A DNA stretch of 36,128 nt from a virus (taxonomy: Duplodnaviria > Heunggongvirae > Uroviricota > Caudoviricetes): the IMG/VR virus record IMGVR_UViG_2778261667_000013, positions 1 through 36,128 of that record. One strand, given 5' to 3'. Shown here in pieces: positions 3,498-35,849 of the stretch. Under the pieces are notes generated by a model. The model was given only the letters and a program-made list of their open reading frames with translations. It had not been told where the DNA came from and searched no databases. A program made the translations under genes and the position numbers. The first letter of the stretch is position 1, and every line of letters begins with the position of its first letter.

Positions 3498-4483
3498 TAT
3501 GCCAGCCTCACAATATAGTTATATGCAATGTTTTTTACGGTGTTTTCCGCATTACCAGTAGCGTTAACCGTGATGGTATGTCCGTGCGCACCCAATGCCA
3601 CAGTGTGTGCATGGGCACCAATACCTACGGTGTGGTTATGTGCCCCAATGTCGACTGTATGTGCATGATTGCCTGATGCACTTGTAGTCGTAGCACCTTT
3701 ATCACTTCGGGGAACACCATAATCTGCACCGCCTGATTGCACGCTCACAGCAAAGCCAACGGTATGTGTATGATTTCCCGTATTGTTCGTTGATTTTGTG
3801 CCGTGGTTAAACGTGCTGACTGTCTTCGTGCCGTAATCAAATGAGCTGGTCGTTTTAGTACCGAGGTCAGTATTTGATGCGCTGGCACTGTGGGTGTGCG
3901 ACTTGATGCCATCCTGTTCCTGAGACAATACGGCACGCCCACTGGCAGGCTTACCCTTAATTGTCCAGCCGCGCATATCAGGAATAACCCCGGACGGATA
4001 GGCAGCCGCAAGTTTAGGGTAAGAGCCTTTATCAAAACTTTGCCCCTGCATTAAGGCATAACCGGATGGCACAGAATCAGATGGCCACGGGATTGGTGTC
4101 CCGACCGGTAAAGCAGTGCTCTGTAACTCTGTAATTTTTTCTGCTAACGCCTTTATTGCCTTTGGCGTGGCTGCCAGCTCTTCTGAGTCACTGTCTGTTG
4201 CGCTACTGAGCTGAACGATGCCTTTCTTCGTTAATGATGCGTCAGGAACTTTTTTCCCGACATATAAAGCCAGCGCCTCAACCAGTTGATTCTGTTTTTT
4301 CGGGTCCGGGTTTACACCGGCCTCTTTAAGGACGTTAATCACCTCCTGCTGCAAATCGCGCGTTGCTGCCTGATGATTATTCATATATTCAGCGTAAACG
4401 ATGGTTCCCTCAATTCCCTGAGTCGGGTCACCATCATGAAACAATTGATCCGGCGTATTCACCGGAGGCATTAAATTCTGCAT
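3497..4483 (-). CDS. short tail fibre protein (Mu S-like) with His-rich C-terminal tip
   Basis: 328 aa; conserved fibre motif [26 protein letters not shown]; C-terminus ...[72 protein letters not shown]... with repeated GAHxHTV units, as in lambda Stf-type fibre tips. Confidence 0.8.
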
Positions 4484-5055
4484 TACTGCTTATCCTCATA
4501 CGTGAAATAACAGTCTGTAAAAGCCGGTTTAAGGTCTTTAAATGTGTTTTCTAAAATGGATTCACCAAAGGCCGTCAGCGGCTCGCCGGTTGCCGATGCC
4601 CCCGTTCTGAAACGGTAGACCGGCGTTTTTGTTCCGATAACATTGACCTGCCATGCCCAGCGGATTTCCGGTATCAGCAGACGGTCGCCGCAGCGGTTTA
4701 TCCCCACCCGGAATGGTCGCGGCTCCGTAATGGTGATGGTATAGCCCAGGCTGGCGGCAAGGCTCTTAAAGTAAGGGATTGACAGCCCGCCTGTGGCTGC
4801 CATTTTTACCAGGATATTCTGCCGCCGCTCCTGTTGTGTGGCACCTTCACGGGGGACAACACCGTACACGCGCTCCCAGTCGGACAGCGTCATCGATGCC
4901 TGCAACGGGGTGATTTGTGCCAGAACGCTCGCCGCTGATGCCTTCACGGCCTCCATGACGTCAGCCTCGGCTGCCAGCTCTGCAGAAATATAATTCCCGT
5001 TCGGGTCATAACTGACAGGCGGCAGCATGGCGCGAAATAAATCGACCATATTCAT
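4483..5055 (-). CDS. tail/baseplate protein (Mu R / gp48-like)
   Basis: 190 aa ORF between baseplate J-like gene and tail fibre, matching Mu gp48 position; assignment by synteny and general resemblance. Confidence 0.55.
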
Positions 5056-19188: not shown

Positions 19189-20351
19189 GATGCCTCCGGG
19201 GTGTCCTGCATAACCCAGTCTGTCAGCGCGTCATCCTCAACCGTCGCCACTGACCAGCGGTCGCCCGACTGTAACGCATACCGCCACGCGTTGCCGTCCT
19301 GCGTGACATGCTCCGCCCGTTCGATGGTCTGCTGCATCAGCACATAGTCGGCGGCGGTCGGGGGCGTGTCTGCTGCACTGAGGCGCTTCATGACGTCAGC
19401 CGTAAGGTTTACCGTCTGCCGTGCAGCGCCCGTGGCAGCGACCTGTTCCGGTGACCGGATGGCCAGCGGATATCGCTGGCGTGCATCCAGTTCGCTGACG
19501 TTTGCCAGTCCCCGGGCAAAATCCGGCCCGGTCAGAGTGCCGGTGACATACTGGCGGGCACTGCGGTAATCATATTTTTCCAGTTCCGGCTGCCATGCCA
19601 CCCGACCGGGATTAAATCCGAAGCCCGGGTCGGCGGTATACACGGAACCGTCCGGCATCTTCAGCCCCATTGTTCTGATGGTCTGGCCCGGCTGGCCATA
19701 TTCCTGCTCAACCTCAGCCAGTCGCCCCTCGCTGCTCTGTACCGTCAGGCCATATTTCTCCACATCCGACGCCGAACGCGCCCGGATACGGCAGCGGCAT
19801 CCGTATCCGTCCGGCGCGTAGAAATACTCCCAGACCGGATCATCCGCCCGGGCGGTAAAACCGTTCAGGGCGGCGTGTTTCGGGCGTGTGTGAAGGTCCA
19901 TCACCGCCACGCGCTCAAAATAAGGCCGGTCAGCCACGTTCGCCATCTGCTGCTGATAACGTCCGGCGTTGTATGACGACTGAATATTGGTATCAAATAT
20001 CGTGCGCAACCGGCGCGGCGTCAGCTGTCTGCCGTGCAGTTCGCCGGTATCCTCGTCCACAATCAGTTTTTTACCCAGCCAGCCTTTTGATTCCAGCAGT
20101 GGTTCCAGTTGTGCAGCAAACTCCCGGAACGTCCCGCCGTCAGCCAGTGCAGCCGTCAGGCCATCACGGACATCCTTCAGAACATCCAGTTTCAGCACGC
20201 CCGCCACCGTGAACGCCCGGGCGTTGGCGATGTCCTTCACATCGTGCCAGCGGAAGCCAATAACGTACCCCTTGCTTTCGAAATACTTAATCGCTTCTTC
20301 CGGTTTCAGGGTGTACGCATAACCCAGGTCAACATCGTCAGTTGTCGGCAT
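19185..20351 (-). CDS. head morphogenesis / minor head protein (Mu F-like)
   Basis: 388 aa immediately downstream of portal gene with overlap; Mu F-like by size and order. Confidence 0.8.
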   Translation of the reverse strand: MPTTDDVDLGYAYTLKPEEAIKYFESKGYVIGFRWHDVKDIANARAFTVAGVLKLDVLKDVRDGLTAALADGGTFREFAAQLEPLLESKGWLGKKLIVDEDTGELHGRQLTPRRLRTIFDTNIQSSYNAGRYQQQMANVADRPYFERVAVMDLHTRPKHAALNGFTARADDPVWEYFYAPDGYGCRCRIRARSASDVEKYGLTVQSSEGRLAEVEQEYGQPGQTIRTMGLKMPDGSVYTADPGFGFNPGRVAWQPELEKYDYRSARQYVTGTLTGPDFARGLANVSELDARQRYPLAIRSPEQVAATGAARQTVNLTADVMKRLSAADTPPTAADYVLMQQTIERAEHVTQDGNAWRYALQSGDRWSVATVEDDALTDWVMQDTPEAS

Positions 20352-21933
20352 TCAGTCGCCCCCAGATATCCGCCACAAAGAATGCCTGTGTCAGCAACTG
20401 CCGCAGCGTGTCATCCGGCAGCTCCGGCCATGCTTCCGCCAGTACGTTCATGGCCTCGTCTGCATCCCGGCCTTCCTGTATGGCCTGCACCAGTGGGGCC
20501 ACCAGTTCGTTCATCCCCTGCGCGATGGCCTCTGCCGGAAGTTCTGCACGGTCGATGGCGCGCTGTGCCGGGTCGTCCTCCCCGTTGTCTTGCTGACTGA
20601 GCGCGGCAACATTCAGCCGCTCACGCAGCTGGCTGAGGCCCGCCTGCACAGGGAGACGCTGTGCCACCGGCACCAGTACCTCTTCGCCGTCTTTCGGGGT
20701 GGGGATGCCGGTTTTTTTGCGCACCCACGACGCCGGGATATCCTTCATTCCCACACTGTTGAGCAACACGTTGACGGCTTCTGCCACACCCTTAATGTCG
20801 GCTTCCTGCTGCACATCAAACACCAGTCGCGGAAGACGGCGTGGCGGGACATCCTGCCAGCCGTTCAGGCTGGCCATCATCTGTATCAGGCTGCTGAACA
20901 TGCCGGACAGCTGGCGCGCATCGGCAGCCAGAATGTCGTGCCGGACCTCGTTATGCACATTGCCCAGCGCGTTGGTGGAGGTTTTACCGTCGGCCTGGCT
21001 GGTCAGCGTACTGCCCAGAATCACTTTTGAGGTGGTACGCTCTGCCCATTCCACCATCGACATGAACGCCTCCGGCCCGCCGGACGCGGCCTCCTTGAAT
21101 TCAATCTCGTTACCCTGCGGCAGGGCTGCCACCGCTTCATGGCCCAGATTGACCAGGGCGTCAAGAATCCTGTCACGGTCCGCGTCACTGGTGCCCTGTG
21201 CATAGTAGGCAATGCGCGCCGGAAGGCCGTAAATCTCCAGAAACTCCGCCATATCACGCAGCGCAAAGTTTTTGAACAGATACGGCCAGACCAGTACGCG
21301 GAACAGACCGGATGACCCCAGGAACCCCGACCGGGCGTTGTAACGGTGAACCAGCCAGCCGAACGGCCACAGCGCGGAACCGTCTTTACCATCTTCCCCA
21401 CGATTGCCGTCATCCAGCCGGAGTTCGTCATTGTGTTCCGGCAGGGTAATGAACCAGTTATGCGGACGCAGCGTCACCGCATCCGGTAGCCACGTTTTAT
21501 CCACGAACGCCCAGCTGATTTCCTGACAGCTGAAGCCGTAACCGACACTGCTCATCCCGTTGAGGATGATGTCCTCCATGTCCGGGATACCGTGCAGCCA
21601 TTCATCCACGGCGGCGGCCAGCTCCTTTTCTGCCTTCGAGGCATTGCGGGGCGGCTCCACCGACCAGTCCAGCGTCAGCAACGCTTTTTTGCGCTTTTCC
21701 ATCTCGGCGAACAGATGGCCATCACGTTCTTCCATATCCGCAAACAGCATCGCCTGCGCCGGAAGATAACCGCGTTCGGCAGCTTCCAGAATGCGCGGCA
21801 GTTTTCTGATGTTCAGACCACGGGACGGGTGGTCGGGATAAATGCGCAGCCGTTCCGCCACTCTGACCGACTGCGTGGTTTTGAGTGCCTCACGTTTCAG
21901 CGGGCGTCCGTAAATATCAACAAGCTGTGCCAT
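20338..21933 (-). CDS. portal protein (Mu H-like)
   Basis: 531 aa directly downstream of terminase large subunit; Mu-type portal by size and synteny. Confidence 0.85.
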   Translation of the reverse strand: MAQLVDIYGRPLKREALKTTQSVRVAERLRIYPDHPSRGLNIRKLPRILEAAERGYLPAQAMLFADMEERDGHLFAEMEKRKKALLTLDWSVEPPRNASKAEKELAAAVDEWLHGIPDMEDIILNGMSSVGYGFSCQEISWAFVDKTWLPDAVTLRPHNWFITLPEHNDELRLDDGNRGEDGKDGSALWPFGWLVHRYNARSGFLGSSGLFRVLVWPYLFKNFALRDMAEFLEIYGLPARIAYYAQGTSDADRDRILDALVNLGHEAVAALPQGNEIEFKEAASGGPEAFMSMVEWAERTTSKVILGSTLTSQADGKTSTNALGNVHNEVRHDILAADARQLSGMFSSLIQMMASLNGWQDVPPRRLPRLVFDVQQEADIKGVAEAVNVLLNSVGMKDIPASWVRKKTGIPTPKDGEEVLVPVAQRLPVQAGLSQLRERLNVAALSQQDNGEDDPAQRAIDRAELPAEAIAQGMNELVAPLVQAIQEGRDADEAMNVLAEAWPELPDDTLRQLLTQAFFVADIWGRLNADN

Positions 21934-21936
21934 TAA

Positions 21937-23577
21937 TTACCATCCTCCTGAACCAAAACGCCCGCCACGGTCACGCCCGCTGCTGCGTGGGGTGTGAATC
22001 TGAAATTTTGCGCTGCGCGATACCGCCAGCGTCCACAGCATGTGCAGACAGTCCGGGCCATCATCGTGGTCGGCTTTGGGGTAGTGGCGCAGCTGGTCAA
22101 TCAGCGTCTGATGTGCCGGACTGATGCGGATCAGGCCGTTGGCCATATGCGGCTGAAGGGACTCAATACGCAGCGCCTTATCCTCCAGCGGGATGACCGG
22201 CAGCGCCGGAACCGGCACGCCCAGCGCCGCCGAACGCTCAACCAGCACGGTACGCAGAAACTCCTGAAACTGGACGGACTCAAACGACCAGCACAGGCAG
22301 TGGTATTCCCGCTGATACTTAATCACGTCTTCGATAAGTTTATTTGGCAGACGTCGGCGGATATCGGCTTCAACCACATCCAGAATGCCGGTAAAACGGT
22401 TAAAGCCCCCCACGAGAATGGCCGACGGGTCGCGGTTTTTATTCTTCTTCCCGAGGCTGGGGTCAACAGCGCCGTAGAACACCCATTCATCAAGACGGTT
22501 AACCCAGAACTTAATGCAGCCCGCAAACAGCGCGTCTTCACCGCTGACCGGGTCGTTCTGGTATTCAGAATCAAAGGTGTCGTGACCGTCACGGACACGG
22601 ATTTTCATCAGCGCCAGCAGGGGACGCGCCGCCCATGACACCACCGACCCGGCGAGCATGTCGGCTTCGTTCTGTCGGTAAAGTGCCTCCGCCGCTTCCG
22701 GCTGTTTGTTGCGGATGAGTTCTTCCCACTCGTCCCACAGTTTCATATTGGCAGGCCACTGAATGACGGCCTTAAAGCGGGCCGTTTTCCACATCGGGTT
22801 ATTGAGCGTGCGCGAGAGTACGGAGTCGTAATGCAGGATGGTCCCGATATAAATAATATCGGTTTTACCGCCAGCCTCGCCCAGCGGCATCACGGTTTTG
22901 GTGAGCCAGTCGTGCAGCTTGTCGCGCTGCTCCGGGTTACGCACCATCTCGTCGTTCTCGATGTCGTCGAGGATGACCAGGTCAGGACGGTACGGACCGT
23001 GGCGCAGACCACGCAGTTTTTTACCACTACCGGCAACGGTCACCTTGATATTGTTGGCCGTGACGATGGTCCCCATACGCCAGACGCGCCCCTGTCCGCA
23101 CACCTCCGGGAAATCGTTTTTTAAACGGGGGTTAAATTCCAGTTCAGCCTTGATGGCTTCCAGCATCGGATAAGCCTGGTCGATACTGTCCATAATGATG
23201 ACCGGATAATGCTTAATACCCCGGATAATGGTCCACAGGGTAAACAGCTGAGTCACCAGCGTGGATTTTGCTTCACCACGGGGCGCGGCGATGGCGTCGT
23301 TCTCCGGGTCCGGGCTTGCCACAACCTGTGGCAGACGGCTGAACAGGTATTTATGCAGCTCACTTTTTGCCGGGTTGCGGACGTAGTGCGGGAAATAGTT
23401 TTCGACAAAATAATCGTAGCCCGTCACCGGGTCGCAGACTGCCGCCCGGCGGGCCTGTGTGGCCTGCGGGTTAACATCGAACCCCAGACATTCAGCCTCA
23501 ATGGTCTGGCGGAGGTTGGCGATGTACTCCTGTAAGCTTTTCTGAAACTCTTTAATGGAAAGTTTACGTTTTGCCAC
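21937..23577 (-). CDS. terminase large subunit
   Basis: ORF 21937..23595; likely start GTG at 23577 with AGGTG RBS (MAKRKLSIKEFQ...); ~550 aa followed by portal is the canonical terminase position. Confidence 0.85.
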   Translation of the reverse strand: MAKRKLSIKEFQKSLQEYIANLRQTIEAECLGFDVNPQATQARRAAVCDPVTGYDYFVENYFPHYVRNPAKSELHKYLFSRLPQVVASPDPENDAIAAPRGEAKSTLVTQLFTLWTIIRGIKHYPVIIMDSIDQAYPMLEAIKAELEFNPRLKNDFPEVCGQGRVWRMGTIVTANNIKVTVAGSGKKLRGLRHGPYRPDLVILDDIENDEMVRNPEQRDKLHDWLTKTVMPLGEAGGKTDIIYIGTILHYDSVLSRTLNNPMWKTARFKAVIQWPANMKLWDEWEELIRNKQPEAAEALYRQNEADMLAGSVVSWAARPLLALMKIRVRDGHDTFDSEYQNDPVSGEDALFAGCIKFWVNRLDEWVFYGAVDPSLGKKNKNRDPSAILVGGFNRFTGILDVVEADIRRRLPNKLIEDVIKYQREYHCLCWSFESVQFQEFLRTVLVERSAALGVPVPALPVIPLEDKALRIESLQPHMANGLIRISPAHQTLIDQLRHYPKADHDDGPDCLHMLWTLAVSRSAKFQIHTPRSSGRDRGGRFGSGGW

Positions 23578-23629
23578 GTCACACCTGGTATACAAATATC
23601 AGACGGCCCGGAAAACCGGGCCGCTGTGG

Positions 23630-24130
23630 TTAACTGAAATTATCCTCAAGCTCTTTAGCGAAGCCTTCGAGCACCTCAAGAAACGGGGCATACTGTGCCG
23701 GGTGACGCTCCTTGATGAACGCGCCGAGCCGCTGCACCACTTCCAGTGCCGTGGCGAGCCGGTCGGTTTCCGGCAGGATTTTTTTACTGCTGGCCACCGC
23801 CTTACTGAGACTGTCAGACAGACTCGCCAGCAGTTCGACGGACTCCTGCGGCGGGATGTCCGGGTTCTGGTTCAGCCGTTCAAGCGTCGTCTGACACTTC
23901 ACCACCAGACTGATAAGCACGGTGCGGGCGACACTTTCCAGCCCGTCACCGGCGAGCGCGTGCGCGGCCCGCAGCTTGTCCCAGTCGTCGCCGTTCTTCA
24001 TCGCCTGCGTTTTCCAGCGCCGCGCTGTGTCGTGCGGCACGGCGTACTTCATGGCGACGATATCCAGCGGAAGCTGGTCAAAGATGTACCCGTTACGGAC
24101 TTTGTCCCTGATATCCTGTGACCACGCCAT
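23630..24130 (-). CDS. terminase small subunit candidate (Mu gp27-like)
   Basis: 166 aa immediately upstream of terminase large subunit; synteny. Confidence 0.6.
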   Translation of the reverse strand: MAWSQDIRDKVRNGYIFDQLPLDIVAMKYAVPHDTARRWKTQAMKNGDDWDKLRAAHALAGDGLESVARTVLISLVVKCQTTLERLNQNPDIPPQESVELLASLSDSLSKAVASSKKILPETDRLATALEVVQRLGAFIKERHPAQYAPFLEVLEGFAKELEDNFS

Positions 24131-24336
24131 TAAGTGTCCTTCTGAGCCTGTTCAATCAGGCATTTAACTTCGTCGGGATTTTCAAGAACATACACGTTTT
24201 TCCCGGTATCCAGCTCAATGATCGTGCCACCATATGCACCACACTGACGGTAAAAATGGGTGATGCGTTCAGCGACTACCATGACAGCGCTGGTGCTCCC
24301 TGAGCCTGCGCATTCTGTAAATCTGATAATGCTCAC
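24130..24336 (-). CDS. hypothetical protein (Mu gp26 position)
   Basis: 68 aa ORF, ATGA overlap with terminase small subunit start. Confidence 0.4.
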   Translation of the reverse strand: MSIIRFTECAGSGSTSAVMVVAERITHFYRQCGAYGGTIIELDTGKNVYVLENPDEVKCLIEQAQKDT

Positions 24337-24356
24337 TGTGTCAGACCTTCAAAAAA

Positions 24357-24542
24357 TCAGTTCTGTGATGAACACTGCCGGATGCCGTCAATAATCCGGC
24401 AGACCTGTGCCGCCGCGTCAAACAGCTGGCCCGCTCTGTTAATGTCCGTGCATCCCACCGGAAGCAACATCACCAGAAACAGGGCCAGAACACAGCGCGC
24501 GGCTTTACGTGGCGTTCTGTGTGTCCAGTGCTGACGCGTCAT
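24357..24542 (-). CDS. small lipoprotein, outer-membrane spanin (Rz1-like) candidate
   Basis: 61 aa; hydrophobic signal VLALFLVMLLPVGC with lipobox-like LPVG-C, ~30 aa mature part with 3 Cys; overlaps endolysin stop by 4 nt. Confidence 0.5.
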   Translation of the reverse strand: MTRQHWTHRTPRKAARCVLALFLVMLLPVGCTDINRAGQLFDAAAQVCRIIDGIRQCSSQN

Positions 24543-25084
24543 ACCGCCACGCGCTCCTTCAGCCAGCCATAAACAAACGATTCGTTAGCCTCGCGTTTCT
24601 CTGCCAGTTCCAGATAGCGGTCACCCTGCGTGCAGTTCAGGGCTGTCAGCATCACCCGTTCACCGTCCTGACCGCGATTATTCAGGAAGGCACGCAATGC
24701 ACTGATGGTACGAGGCCCGATGCGTCCGTCTGCGTCCATATCCGGGTACAGCCTGCCGCGCAGATTGAACACATTCAGCCAGCGCTGAAGCATTCTGGAC
24801 GCCACGGTTGGCCCCATATTCACACCGGTATCACACAACTCTGCGGCAATATCAGGGGATAATGCGGCGACCTGGTCAAATCGCGGGCCATACCAGTAAT
24901 CGGCTTCAAGGATGTCCAGCGCCTGTTCGCGGGTTAAATCGCGCATATCGCCACGGTATCCGTGGGCACGGGCGACTTTTTCCGTAATGCCCCATTTGGT
25001 CGGACCACCCTTATCATCCGGGTGATTGACGTAACCGCCTTCTTTGCCCAGGACTTCATCAAAAATTTTATCTTTTGATTTCAT
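24539..25084 (-). CDS. endolysin, GH108-type lysozyme with C-terminal peptidoglycan-binding domain
   Basis: 181 aa; N-terminal motif FDEVLGKEGGYVNHPDDKGGPTKWGIT characteristic of glycoside hydrolase family 108; no N-terminal transmembrane segment. Confidence 0.85.
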   Translation of the reverse strand: MKSKDKIFDEVLGKEGGYVNHPDDKGGPTKWGITEKVARAHGYRGDMRDLTREQALDILEADYWYGPRFDQVAALSPDIAAELCDTGVNMGPTVASRMLQRWLNVFNLRGRLYPDMDADGRIGPRTISALRAFLNNRGQDGERVMLTALNCTQGDRYLELAEKREANESFVYGWLKERVAV

Positions 25085-25370
25085 GTGGATGCCTCAGTAA
25101 CGAAAGGATTTTTGACAAATTCCCGTGCGCCCACACGATAAGCGCACAGAAAACCAGATTCAGCGCCACAACCAGCCAGCTGGAGTGCGTGTATGTACCG
25201 GACAGCCAGCGGAACGGGATGATGATGTAACCGAGCATCAGCCAGTACGCCAGCCAGGTAATCATCGGTTTATGCGCCGCACCGTGGCGGCGATACACAA
25301 ACAACCCCAGCACAATGGCGAGGCACAGCCAGACGTTCACGATACCGGCAAGGCTACTTTCCATTTCCAC
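25068..25370 (-). CDS. small membrane protein (holin/antiholin candidate)
   Basis: 100 aa with 2-3 predicted transmembrane helices; sits between holin-like gene and endolysin. Confidence 0.45.
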   Translation of the reverse strand: MEMESSLAGIVNVWLCLAIVLGLFVYRRHGAAHKPMITWLAYWLMLGYIIIPFRWLSGTYTHSSWLVVALNLVFCALIVWAHGNLSKILSLLRHPHEIKR

Positions 25371-25746
25371 CCCCTCCGCCGCGCAGTCTGGAAAACAGGC
25401 CGAACAGCGATGAAATTTCCTGTTGATAAAGAAAGGTCAGTATCTTGATGGATAACGCCGAGACACCGACCGCACACAATGCATCGAGCGGCTTGTCGTT
25501 GTAGTGGGTCAACCACTGCATCAGTGACGCAGCCACGCCAGCCCCCAGAACGCCAACCACAAACGCGACGAGCAGGTGAATAGCCATTCGCCATACCGGG
25601 ATTTCTTTCTGCTGCGTGACAACAAAAAGCGCCCCGGCAAACGCGCCCACCACGACCCCGAAATCGGTATTGGTGAGAAGGCCAAACACACTGGCACCAC
25701 CGATGGTGACTGCCACAGCTCCGCCGCCTGATAAGGGTTCAGACAT
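25354..25746 (-). CDS. holin-like membrane protein
   Basis: ORF 25354..25806 trimmed to ATG at 25746 (MSEPLSGGG...) with strong RBS CAGGAGAAACTC; 3-4 predicted TM helices; first gene of the lysis cassette. Confidence 0.55.
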   Translation of the reverse strand: MSEPLSGGGAVAVTIGGASVFGLLTNTDFGVVVGAFAGALFVVTQQKEIPVWRMAIHLLVAFVVGVLGAGVAASLMQWLTHYNDKPLDALCAVGVSALSIKILTFLYQQEISSLFGLFSRLRGGGGGNGK

Positions 25747-25933: not shown

Positions 25934-26221
25934 TTAAAGGGAAGCGAGTTTTAATGGTGGCTTATAACACGCCTGCGCAAGCAGGTTAGCTCTTTCCACG
26001 GCTTTACGCATTTCCCGTTCTGCGTCCAGCATCCTGTTTACGGCTGACAGCACTTCATTATGATTCGTTTCTGACTCCGGGCTTTGGGCCTGTCTCGCCA
26101 GATAACTGGATAAATTACACATCTCAGCATGTCGGCGACGGGCTGCATCCCGGGCCTTGTCTGAAAATGCGGTATATTCACCGAGTGCTGCGTAGTCGAT
26201 ATTGGTGTCAGAACTCATCAT
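25934..26221 (-). CDS. hypothetical protein between activator gene and lysis cassette
   Basis: 95 aa ORF, Arg/Glu-rich, no recognisable motif. Confidence 0.4.
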   Translation of the reverse strand: MMSSDTNIDYAALGEYTAFSDKARDAARRRHAEMCNLSSYLARQAQSPESETNHNEVLSAVNRMLDAEREMRKAVERANLLAQACYKPPLKLASL

Positions 26222-26248: not shown

Positions 26249-26280
26249 TTAATCAAAAAGCCCCACCTGGGTGGGGCTTT
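26249..26280 (-). terminator. rho-independent terminator overlapping the 3' end of the Mor/C gene
   Basis: Minus-strand hairpin GCCCCACC-CA-GGTGGGGC followed by TTTTTGAT and the stop codon; coordinates approximate. Confidence 0.6.
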
Positions 26281-26716
26281 TCAGCGAAGTCTGTTTTTGT
26301 CGTCGGTGTATCAGCTGCCATGCGTACCGGTCTGAAATGCCGTAACGGGGACAGAGCAGTGCCAGCGCCTGCCGGTGTGAGCATCCGTCTTTTACATGCT
26401 GCTGTAAATCAGCCATAAAACGGGTGTTACGCAGGGCACGTAACGCATGATCGCAACGGGGAATGTAAAACGGCGCACCGCCAAGAAAGCGGATCAGTTT
26501 GTTGATTTCGTCTTCGGTCAGCACATCATGTAACAGGGCATGGACACCGCCGGTTCGTTCGGCGTGTGCGCCGGTTTTACCGCTTAACGTCACGCCACCA
26601 AAAGAACGGATTAACCGGGTCAGGGCGGGGAAGCCAATCACGCTAATCAGTTGCTGCACGGAATCAGGCAACAGTGCCTGCGCATCGCGAAGATCTGTTT
26701 CACTGAAGGTCTGCAT
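26249..26716 (-). CDS. Mor/C-family transcriptional activator (middle/late gene activator)
   Basis: 155 aa; C-terminal region ...FLGGAPFYIPRCDHALRALRN...RYGISDRYAWQLIHRR matches the Mor/C signature (GG..YIPR plus C-terminal HTH). Confidence 0.8.
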   Translation of the reverse strand: MQTFSETDLRDAQALLPDSVQQLISVIGFPALTRLIRSFGGVTLSGKTGAHAERTGGVHALLHDVLTEDEINKLIRFLGGAPFYIPRCDHALRALRNTRFMADLQQHVKDGCSHRQALALLCPRYGISDRYAWQLIHRRQKQTSLKSPTQVGLFD

Positions 26717-33806: not shown

Positions 33807-35849
33807 TTAACGGTTGTTTGTGCCGTTTTTCTTTAAATTGCGCTCGCGTTCAGATGCGAATAAATAAAGTTCTTCTTTTTCCTTTTTCTCCTGGCGTTCC
33901 AGTCCATATCCCAGATTAAACTCAGGCTTCTGCGTAATAGCCGGGGTAAGCTCGCGTTTAGCCTCTTCGATTTTCTGCGCGGCCCGTGCAATGCGGCCTC
34001 TGACGCGTTTCTCCAGTTTTTGCTCGATAACTGGTTTAGCGAAGGCATCAACCTTGTTACCGTTCCAGATGGCATCGCAGATATAAGAGCCATCAGCCCG
34101 CCGGACAATGACACTGTTTGCATCATGAATATCGTAACTGACCCTGACTTCATTCCCGTGCTCTGCGGCCAGCTCATACGAGTAATAAATATTGTTGAAT
34201 AACTGAATTTCCCCGCGAAATGTTTTGCGCGTCACTTCCGGTCTGAACATTTCATGCAGTTCTTCCGGCGACAGGAAATCAATTTCAACATTCTGCTCTT
34301 TTATCAGTTTCCGGCGATACGCTGCCGGGCTGTAATATTCGCCATCCTCTTTGCGGGGAAGGCTGCTGTGTGGCCGGTTGTTATAGCGTCTGACCTCCAG
34401 TTCTATGGCTGCCATCAGTTGCTCAAAGGTGGGGATTTCATCCCTCGCCTTAACCTGCCGTTTTGTCAGTTCTTTCCCTTTGTGGGTGGCCTTAATGGCT
34501 GACTGCATAATCCGTTGCTGCATCATTACGGTTTCCTTGTCTGCTCCCTTTGAGCAGTACGTCTGGAAACTCAGGGCCACATCCCGGGGAATTTCCTTGT
34601 TAAGCCTTTCAATCACCCCGCGCCCCTGCGGGTTACCTGGTATCCCCGTGTGATGTTCCACACCCAGCCGGGGGAGAATCCCGGTAATATCGGCATCAAG
34701 AACCCGGTTTTTTTCGCCGCCCCCGTTATCGGAGTAATAAATCAGCGGTATCCCGTGCTGTGCCATGCCGTAACGCAACGCATCAGCAACGGCTATCACG
34801 TTCTCCGACAGGGACAGCGACCAGCCCACAACAAAGCGTTGCCCCGCATCCATAACCAGCGTCACTTCTGGCCGGAAAATATTGCCGGTCAGTGGGTTAA
34901 ACGCGGTCATCTTCATACAGTGACCATCCCCGACCCATACCGCATTAACCGGTAGCGATGTCCAGTCGCGCCGCACAAAGGGATTGAGCGAACGCCAGGC
35001 TGAACCGGTGGAGCGGAAACGCTCCTTAACAATCACCGGGACGTTGCTTAACACCCGTCTTACTGCGTGAACGGAAGGCAGTGCTGCCAGCATTCCCGCA
35101 TCATTCGCGTGTTTTTCATGCCACCAGGCTGAAAACTCGCGATAAGCGTATTCAACGGTCGGGCGCTTCCATGAGCGATAGAACATAAAGAAATCGCTCA
35201 ACCACCAGACCTGCTCCCACGGTGTTCCCTTATGATGACCGGGAGCCAGTAACGCCAGTAACTGATTGGCATCACCGCGCGCCATCAGCCAGGCGGAATA
35301 CCATTCCTGTAAACATCCCCAGCTGACGCCAGTTCGCTTACCCTGTCTGGCGTTGGCAGTACCTGCGGCCTCAATAATGCGGTCAGGCAATGCCCTCTGA
35401 CGAATACCATCAACGATGTGTTTTACTGCTGCCGTCCTGGACATTCCTGCGTATTCACGCAGTTTATGCACTTCGGTAGCCAGCAATATCCGCGCATCAG
35501 CGATGGCCTTTTGCTTGTCGGTCAGTGCCTGGACTTCGCGTAATGCCAGTTCCGGGCATTTGACCATCACTTCCAGTTCATCGCGAACGGTAACGTTTTT
35601 AACTGCCTTCTGCTCAACCACGGCAGGCAGTTGTGCATCTTCCAGAACCTGATGGGTCAGGCGTTTACGTAAAACTTTCTGCGCTTCAGCAGGCAGGCAG
35701 TCGATGTGATACTCGAATGCTTTGGTGCCTTCACGCTTGCGCTTCCATTCCGGGTTATTTTCAGCAAGACGATCCAGACGTGCCCGGATGTTTTTTTCTG
35801 CTGATGGAAAACCGGATAATCCCAGGCAATCCCGCACTACAAACCACAC
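33807..35849 (-). CDS. MuA-like DDE transposase
   Basis: 680 aa; catalytic-core-like motifs WVGDGH and YYSDNGGGE; located between ner-like and B-like genes as in Mu. Confidence 0.9.
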   Translation of the reverse strand: MWFVVRDCLGLSGFPSAEKNIRARLDRLAENNPEWKRKREGTKAFEYHIDCLPAEAQKVLRKRLTHQVLEDAQLPAVVEQKAVKNVTVRDELEVMVKCPELALREVQALTDKQKAIADARILLATEVHKLREYAGMSRTAAVKHIVDGIRQRALPDRIIEAAGTANARQGKRTGVSWGCLQEWYSAWLMARGDANQLLALLAPGHHKGTPWEQVWWLSDFFMFYRSWKRPTVEYAYREFSAWWHEKHANDAGMLAALPSVHAVRRVLSNVPVIVKERFRSTGSAWRSLNPFVRRDWTSLPVNAVWVGDGHCMKMTAFNPLTGNIFRPEVTLVMDAGQRFVVGWSLSLSENVIAVADALRYGMAQHGIPLIYYSDNGGGEKNRVLDADITGILPRLGVEHHTGIPGNPQGRGVIERLNKEIPRDVALSFQTYCSKGADKETVMMQQRIMQSAIKATHKGKELTKRQVKARDEIPTFEQLMAAIELEVRRYNNRPHSSLPRKEDGEYYSPAAYRRKLIKEQNVEIDFLSPEELHEMFRPEVTRKTFRGEIQLFNNIYYSYELAAEHGNEVRVSYDIHDANSVIVRRADGSYICDAIWNGNKVDAFAKPVIEQKLEKRVRGRIARAAQKIEEAKRELTPAITQKPEFNLGYGLERQEKKEKEELYLFASERERNLKKNGTNNR

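Follow-up and report, generated by a model that had tools for sequence, protein, structure and literature searches.

A small lone lipoprotein occupies the spanin slot in the lysis cassette of a Mu-like prophage

The IMG/VR virus record IMGVR_UViG_2778261667_000013 (Caudoviricetes), whose 36,128 nucleotides (nt) are the window analyzed here, is approximately a complete Mu-like prophage with its genes read on the minus strand. Its lysis cassette ends in a 61-codon gene for a predicted lipoprotein precursor, the lone occupant of the slot in which sister cassettes carry an inner-membrane spanin (i-spanin) together with an outer-membrane spanin (o-spanin). This lipoprotein and the classical spanin pairs are strict alternatives in one slot. 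It is tentatively proposed, with a confidence that stays just short of even, that the lipoprotein is a stand-alone disruptor of the envelope that displaced a two-component spanin and has no dedicated phage-encoded partner in the inner membrane. For the question of how spanin-less phages get through the outer membrane, the family is a clean case, and one with a tractable host, since a conserved lipoprotein and classical spanin pairs exclude each other inside otherwise homologous cassettes.

The either/or relation was established by applying fixed criteria for an i-spanin, from -1500 to +1000 nt, to the 72 lipoprotein loci with adequate flanks. An i-spanin-like open reading frame (ORF) was found in none of them (0/72), against 66 of the 69 complete loci of the mEp390 type searched with the same detector. 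Conversely, the lipoprotein is absent from all 80 mEp390-like viral contigs, a set that was collected from a viral scan with a holin alignment and contains mEp390-like loci only, being a good control and a poor sample of diversity, and no locus carries both the lipoprotein and a spanin pair. In mEp390, HK639, Klebsiella ST16-OXA48phi5.3, LMessi and Yersinia vB_YpM_41 the same slot holds an overlapped spanin pair, composed of an i-spanin of about 91 amino acids (aa), with an N-terminal transmembrane (TM) segment and a charged helical domain, and an o-spanin of about 75 aa. The GH108 endolysin gene of vB_YpM_41 has 82.6% DNA identity to that of the window and yet is accompanied by a classical spanin pair. 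Salmonella F1055 and the locus L177 have embedded lambda-type Rz/Rz1 genes in the slot, unrelated to the overlapped type, and no cryptic homology between the lipoprotein and Rz/Rz1 regions was detected in any frame. A strict either/or in one slot is the pattern expected for non-homologous functional replacement; it is the main argument for a role at the outer membrane and favors the replacement of spanins as that role.

The company that the gene keeps is equally constant. In 85 loci, wherever enough upstream sequence is present, the lipoprotein gene follows a holin-like PF16931 protein, a holin-family protein with three TM segments (3TM holin) and an endolysin, and its start lies between -4 and +15 nt from the endolysin stop in 48 of 79 loci. 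The module of two holins and the lipoprotein is found both in Mu-like phages, with Mor, DUF1804 and large terminase (TerL) genes, and in lambdoid phages, with HNH and cos-type terminase genes, and the genes on either side of the endolysin are retained while it switches between GH108 and M15 peptidase types, as it does even between Mu-like prophages that are almost identical. The lipoprotein thus remains with the holins as endolysin and phage type change, which argues against an endolysin-specific or receptor-specific role. The gene order described by an earlier note on this DNA (holin-like protein, second small membrane protein, GH108 endolysin, lipoprotein) was recovered with all four ORFs on the minus strand at the positions in Table 1, and the overlap that it reported between the lipoprotein start and the endolysin stop can be read directly from the sequence as ATGA. 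The same -4 nt junction occurs in 12 loci of the GH108 type, while loci of the M15 type have a gap of 13-15 nt. An AAGGAG motif lies 11 nt upstream of the lipoprotein ATG, the next gene begins 20 nt past its stop, and no terminator-like site was found between the cassette genes; this tight packing places the lipoprotein gene in the late lysis and packaging operon.

The claim of the earlier note that no inner-membrane spanin lies nearby can be widened considerably. The small-ORF search that it proposed for positions 24100-25400 in all frames was run over the full 36 kb, and every ORF of 40-260 aa in the six frames of the prophage was screened for a single N-terminal TM segment; no i-spanin-like ORF was found in the cassette or in the rest of the prophage, so the absence holds for the whole prophage and for all 72 related loci. 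The same detector, applied as a positive control to seven related phages, located a spanin pair immediately behind the endolysin gene in six of them. A tblastn search of the window with seven real spanin subunits from relatives gave nothing at E<=0.05, and lambda Rz/Rz1 and D108 gp23 gave nothing significant. Besides internal-start fragments of both holin genes and a few ORFs lying out of frame within other genes, the screen of the coding strand returned as plausible candidates the lipoprotein itself and two ORFs of the early region, of 83 and 136 aa, which some related Mu-like prophages have and others lack. These two were rejected as i-spanins, as they belong to PHROGs of unknown function and occur in five and seven related loci, respectively, and in no lambdoid one. 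A small tail-anchored ORF of about 57 aa (...AAAFAIRLVAVAVLIWAVRWW) lies directly upstream of the lipoprotein gene in 27 loci (e.g., L002 3326-3499) and also directly upstream of Rz/Rz1 in L177 (4579-4689), and it may be an optional component of the lysis cassette. It was likewise rejected as an i-spanin, having a basic N-terminus and no periplasmic domain and being absent from the window.

Nor does the lipoprotein combine both spanin functions in one chain. A hydropathy scan gives a single hydrophobic segment, approximately at residues 18-34 and ending in L-L-P-V-G-C31, and no hydrophobic segment at the C-terminus, which is polar (CSSQN); the protein can therefore not be a unimolecular spanin, in agreement with the earlier note, and it is far too short to reach the inner membrane. 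Without a partner, the mature part of about 30 residues is below the length needed to bridge the envelope.

The gene is real and under selection. A codon analysis of 53 distinct alleles gave a ratio of nonsynonymous to synonymous substitution rates (dN/dS) of 0.26 between subfamilies and 0.19-0.29 within them, indicating purifying selection. Between subfamilies, for which synonymous sites are saturated, the ratio is 0.15 for the mature part, about 1 for the hydrophobic core and 0.12 for the N-terminal n-region of the signal peptide. The value of the n-region, together with the saturated synonymous sites, points to constraint on the protein and not on the nucleotides, while the value of the h-region indicates that only hydrophobicity is maintained. 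Constraint as strong as that on the mature part is unusual for the n-region of a signal peptide that is cleaved off, and the precursor or the signal peptide may therefore have some activity.

The lipoprotein matches phrog_7528, a family of "unknown function" (E 4.9e-42, residues 1-60 of the 60-position profile), while sequence searches of Pfam, NCBIfam, PADLOC and PDB gave nothing significant; in Pfam, no match was obtained for the lipoprotein at E<=0.1 or for 18 family members at E<=10. The family was searched for by word index and, exhaustively, by HMMER across 1.84 billion representatives, and the latter search retrieved only 20 clusters at 50% identity, all of them from one short Enterobacterales family of about 60 residues, so that no distant relatives with informative partners are available. 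The hosts are E. coli, Salmonella, Citrobacter, Cronobacter and Yersinia, and the homologues in the 85 loci come from IMG/VR contigs, GTDB genomes, E. coli E423 and the Shiga-toxin (Stx) phages phiP27 and phiSTEC1575-Stx2k. An unannotated copy of the phiP27 type, with 56% identity to the window lipoprotein, is present at 20079-20249 of PP818812.1 ("Actinobacillus phage vB_Apl-pPE4"), Actinobacillus being an unexpected host, since all other members of the family are from Enterobacterales.

On the window's coding strand, the precursor is the sole ORF in which a signal peptide and a lipobox are combined. Its n-region is long and basic, and the pattern M-x-R-x-H-W-T-H-R-x-P-R is the best-conserved part of the protein, with T7, H8, R9 and R12 invariant in the family alignment. 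All aligned members have C31, C48 and C57, in the spacing Cys31-x16-Cys-x8-Cys, so the mature part carries two invariant Cys, nine residues apart, besides C31; periplasmic Cys able to form disulfides are an o-spanin trait, and C48 and C57 may form such disulfides. The mature part has a hydrophobic moment of about 0.5 and a net charge of 0 (-1 in the phiP27 homologue), and AlphaFold2, run with an 18-sequence alignment, predicts a single long helix at low confidence, with a predicted local distance difference test (pLDDT) score of 65, uninformative beyond helicity. A short hydrophobic a/d repeat gives it the look of a miniature Lpp-like helix, although the resemblance is not significant: three of 18 family members match the Lpp/OprI alanine-zipper model NF040598 of NCBIfam (best E 0.025, below significance) and the window protein does not. 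The lipobox LPVG-C and the mature part of about 30 residues described by the earlier note were retained as to Cys31 and length, while the Pro at -3 makes the lipobox atypical. This Pro (LLPVGC) is kept within the window subtype, whereas the phiP27 subtype has the canonical LLVGC, and LLPVGC lies outside the PROSITE PS51257 and DOLOP patterns as these are presently read. Lipidation of the window subtype at Cys31 is probable, and the label "outer-membrane spanin" presumes both lipidation and sorting to the outer membrane.

A sequence of events can be proposed for the lipoprotein as a stand-alone disruptor. It would be synthesized late, from the transcript that carries the holins and the endolysin and in translational coupling with the latter, as indicated by the ATGA overlap and the tight packing seen in the sequence. 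The precursor would be inserted through its signal peptide, lipidated at Cys31 and carried by the Lol system to the inner leaflet of the outer membrane, since residue +2 is Thr in the window, and Thr, Val or Ala, never Asp, in the family. There it would display an amphipathic Pro-free helix of about 30 residues, and the two invariant Cys could give disulfide-linked oligomers. Once the GH108 endolysin has been released by the holins and the wall broken down, the lipopeptide would weaken the outer membrane locally; since the protein lacks an anchor in the inner membrane and is not long enough to reach across the periplasm, a local weakening is proposed instead of a fusion of inner and outer membranes. 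The conserved basic n-region may mean that the precursor or the cleaved signal peptide also acts at the inner membrane, for example in timing.

The nearest functional models for such a protein are small lytic lipoproteins, namely release proteins and entericidin B, and the disruptin of phage phiKT, by functional resemblance and not by membership. Colicin lysis or bacteriocin release proteins and entericidin B are made as precursors of about 45-60 residues with a lipobox and yield lipopeptides of about 30 residues that permeabilize the envelope alone, and lysis by the release proteins depends on the outer-membrane phospholipase A (PldA), while their signal peptide is itself long-lived and active. 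The latter is a possible parallel to the conserved n-region, whereas the window lipoprotein differs from the release proteins in composition and is encoded in a phage late operon, not in a colicin or chromosomal one. The o-spanins of the lambda Rz1 and epsilon15 types are also small lipoproteins with periplasmic Cys encoded at the end of the lysis cassette, in the same slot of sister cassettes, but their i-spanin gene is embedded, overlapping or nearby, and they have no sequence similarity to the window lipoprotein; Rz1 has ten Pro in 40 residues, while the mature part described here has none and is predicted to be helical. The unimolecular spanin gp11 of phage T1 is likewise the product of a single lysis-cassette gene with an N-terminal lipoprotein signal, but it has the C-terminal TM domain that the window protein lacks. 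The disruptin gp28 of phiKT, a cationic, LL-37-like 56-aa peptide of a phage without spanins (bioRxiv 10.1101/515445), is the sole characterized spanin-independent outer-membrane factor in the literature retrieved. It is similar to the present proposal as a small, predicted amphipathic helix that would break the outer membrane without an inner-membrane partner, whereas the window lipoprotein has a net charge of 0, a signal peptide and a lipobox, and no homology to it. Phage Mu itself lyses its host with a signal-arrest-release (SAR) endolysin (gp22), the releasin gp25 and the spanin gp23/gp23.1, and basic cytoplasmic residues govern the membrane release of the SAR endolysin (PMC9239132). The window shares with Mu the Mor-family activator, the DUF1804 gene, transposase genes of the Mu type and an order in which lysis genes precede those for packaging. 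On the other hand, Mu has no holins where the window has two, a SAR instead of a cytoplasmic GH108 endolysin, and the gp23/gp23.1 pair instead of one lipoprotein; among the 13 window ORFs scanned, none matched the releasin family.

The case of a lone lipoprotein is already partly recorded, under a different name, through phiP27. In the spanin census of Kongari et al. 2018 (PMC6139136), phiP27 is listed with a "separated" two-component spanin whose subunits are both singleton families, the i-spanin at 20348-20542 (64 aa) and the o-spanin, predicted to be 83% helical, at 20706-20861; with 62 residues, the pair has the shortest combined periplasmic length of the census. The same work describes periplasmic Cys as a general trait of spanins, which the invariant periplasmic Cys of the lipoprotein match, lists 31 genomes with a lipoprotein but no linked i-spanin, leaving the matter open, and reports about 13% of the census phages, all from Gram-negative hosts, without identifiable spanins; further literature on orphan o-spanins or experiments on this cassette was searched for and nothing relevant was found. 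The phiP27 o-spanin of the census is a homologue of the window lipoprotein (56% identity), with a signal peptide, a lipobox, a helical mature part of 30 residues, the same three Cys and the same two holins upstream. It differs in lying about 0.5 kb from an M15 endolysin, while the window lipoprotein abuts a GH108 endolysin, and the 64-aa "i-spanin" ORF has no counterpart in the window. That ORF (L001 3170-3364) was rejected as an i-spanin and appears to be an artefact: it starts with TTG, runs antisense to a better ORF of 90 aa and is found in one of 86 clustered loci. The RefSeq gene L32 (P27p32, 51 aa; L001 3452-3607) overlaps the lipoprotein homologue (L001 3495-3683) in another frame, and because the conserved frame is the unannotated 62-aa ORF at 20673-20861, L32 looks like a mis-call.

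Several other explanations have to be weighed against a stand-alone disruptor. The phiP27 listing would support a reading in which the lipoprotein is the o-spanin of a conventional separated pair whose i-spanin was missed in the window, but this is largely refuted and keeps a very slim chance only: the 64-aa ORF has the defects just given, most loci leave no room between endolysin and lipoprotein, and the only type II membrane ORF of the window, the 83-aa one, is about 3 kb away in the early region, Cys-rich instead of coiled-coil and present in only five related loci. The earlier note had left a choice between an unconventional partner and a different way of disrupting the outer membrane. Both survive, with the spanin exclusivity favoring replacement, and an accessory role joins them as a third reading. 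For the unconventional partner, judged rather improbable, the lipoprotein would be a true o-spanin working with a holin-like or a host inner-membrane protein, and lysis would end in membrane fusion. The most plausible candidate would be the PF16931 protein, joined by a disulfide through the Cys of its DALCAV motif (25477-25479), which is predicted to lie where the fourth TM segment meets the periplasm. Wherever the PF16931 protein is in view in lipoprotein loci, this Cys is present (75 of 75), while Gly takes its place in 80 of 80 mEp390-type loci and in each of the six spanin-type phages examined. Like most spanins, the lipoprotein family has periplasmic Cys, here invariant, and the census explicitly allows partners of other topologies (PMC6139136). 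However, the Cys form occurs in L177 beside lambda-type Rz/Rz1, where the lipoprotein is absent, and in Rac-SA53 and L178 with neither spanins nor lipoprotein, so the co-variation was rejected as evidence of a partner; the Cys/Gly split largely follows clade, which makes it roughly one independent event and a weak lead. Moreover, a loop of 13 residues plus a helix of 30 cannot span the periplasm when the 62 periplasmic residues of phiP27 are already the shortest pair in the census, and the holins work with ordinary spanins in sister cassettes.

The accessory reading, unlikely though with a real share of the probability, holds that the lipoprotein does not disrupt the outer membrane at all, acting either as a timing or anti-holin-like factor, in the form of a precursor anchored in the inner membrane, or as a late envelope protein that protects progeny or blocks superinfection, in phages that have no outer-membrane step or need none. 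It draws on the constraint on the n-region (0.12, versus 0.15 for the mature part), which one would not expect of a signal peptide that is thrown away and which suggests activity at the inner membrane, for which the basic cytoplasmic residues of the Mu SAR endolysin (PMC9239132) are a precedent of functional tails; on the Pro at -3, which may slow or prevent processing; and on the existence of cassettes with neither spanin nor lipoprotein and of the roughly 13% of census phages without spanins. Against it, an accessory protein would be expected to occur with spanins at least sometimes, which is never seen (0/72 versus 66/69), and the same holin clade works without the lipoprotein in L177. Changes of phage type and tail genes leave the gene where it is, which speaks against receptor blocking; it is translationally coupled to the endolysin within the late operon instead of being a moron under a promoter of its own, and it has no match to any PADLOC defense model. 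A bolder version of the disruptor, to which a small chance is given, would make this one 61-codon gene a partner-free replacement of spanins at both membranes, a third class of disruptor after spanins and disruptins. The basic signal peptide, or the uncleaved precursor, would then act at the inner membrane and the disulfide-linked 30-residue lipopeptide at the outer one, a design that may be likened to that of the bacteriocin release protein.

The reading of the lipoprotein as a stand-alone outer-membrane disruptor, with displacement of the spanin pair as the most likely account, has its own difficulties. The argument for displacement is taken from the position in the slot and positional replacement is indirect, while the mechanism is inferred; a lipopeptide resident in the outer membrane would have to stay harmless until the wall is lost. 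Rac-SA53 and the Raoultella loci L178/L179 have neither lipoprotein nor spanin after the endolysin, so the slot can be empty, although these prophages may be defective. The Pro at -3 makes lipidation of the window subtype uncertain, and the mature part, being neutral and not cationic, does not look like a disruptin. Pfam scans detected no similarity to colicin lysis proteins or entericidins, and the family is annotated as "unknown function" or "hypothetical" everywhere. Should the lipoprotein work alone, it would be a new minimal disruptor of the outer membrane, useful in engineering lysis and in understanding how toxin is released from Stx prophages, and the published spanin assignment of phiP27 would be corrected; should it not, these phages would be a test bed for spanin-independent lysis.

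The features of the window are collected in Table 1. The 3.2 kb surrounding the cassette have 96-98% identity to prophages in E. coli chromosomes, and of 5426 complete E. coli genomes, 168 match the cassette region. The PGAP annotation of these chromosomes has the same genes: the first gene product, which also matches phrog_198 (holin, E 9e-42), is a "phage holin family protein" in E. coli E423, the 3TM holin (phrog_217, holin, E 2e-31) is given in a slightly shorter form, and the small lipoprotein ORF is a "hypothetical protein". The 3TM holin gene overlaps its neighbors on both sides. The endolysin matches phrog_315, and no signal or SAR segment was found in it.

Table 1. Features of the lysis cassette and of the surrounding prophage in the 36,128-nt window
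Feature	Position	Strand	Remarks
Holin-like four-TM protein, 130 aa	25354-25746	-	First cassette gene; PF16931 Phage_holin_8, E 3e-25
3TM holin-family protein, 100 aa from GTG	25068-25370	-	PF05449 Phage_holin_3_7, E 7e-17
Endolysin, cytoplasmic-type, 181 aa	24539-25084	-	GH108 PF05838, E 4e-27; PG_binding_3 PF09374, E 1e-26
Lipoprotein precursor (predicted), 61 aa	24357-24542	-	phrog_7528; lone occupant of the spanin slot
ATGA overlap	24539-24542	-	Endolysin TGA within lipoprotein ATG; translational coupling
n-region, codons 1-16	24495-24542	-	MTRQHWTHRTPRKAAR; long, basic, conserved; 5 K/R and 2 His
h-region, codons 17-30	24453-24494	-	Hydrophobic; ends in lipobox-like L-L-P-V-G before Cys31
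Mature part, codons 31-61	24360-24452	-	CTDINRAGQLFDAAAQVCRIIDGIRQCSSQN; Pro-free amphipathic helix
Large terminase	21937-23595		Head and tail genes also in the window
DUF1804 protein	23630-24130		Mu-like prophage
Mor-family activator	26249-26716		Mu-like prophage
Type II membrane ORF, 83 aa	27557-27808		Early region; Cys-rich periplasmic part; phrog_8391
Signal-peptide ORF, 136 aa	28040-28450		Early region; phrog_8805
Transposase-sized ORF	33807-35849		Mu-like prophage

Some neighboring genes and related loci deserve a brief description. In the Rac-SA53 locus (L090 3332-4562), LT-IIa toxin genes follow the endolysin directly and a gene annotated as a deletion fusion comes next, while in L178/L179 the slot region (4205-4800), next to the same holin clade, is empty of spanin and lipoprotein. 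Two soluble ORFs without TM segments are conserved as cassette flanks in the Mu-like group, a helical one of 95 aa (25934-26221; phrog_7152) between the Mor-family activator and the first holin, and one of 68 aa (24130-24336; phrog_7691) between the lipoprotein and the DUF1804 gene. The Mu-like contigs L004 and L014 have in common the Mor gene, the 95-aa ORF, both holins, the lipoprotein, DUF1804 and TerL, but their endolysins are cleanly exchanged, one contig having the GH108 type and the other the M15 peptidase.

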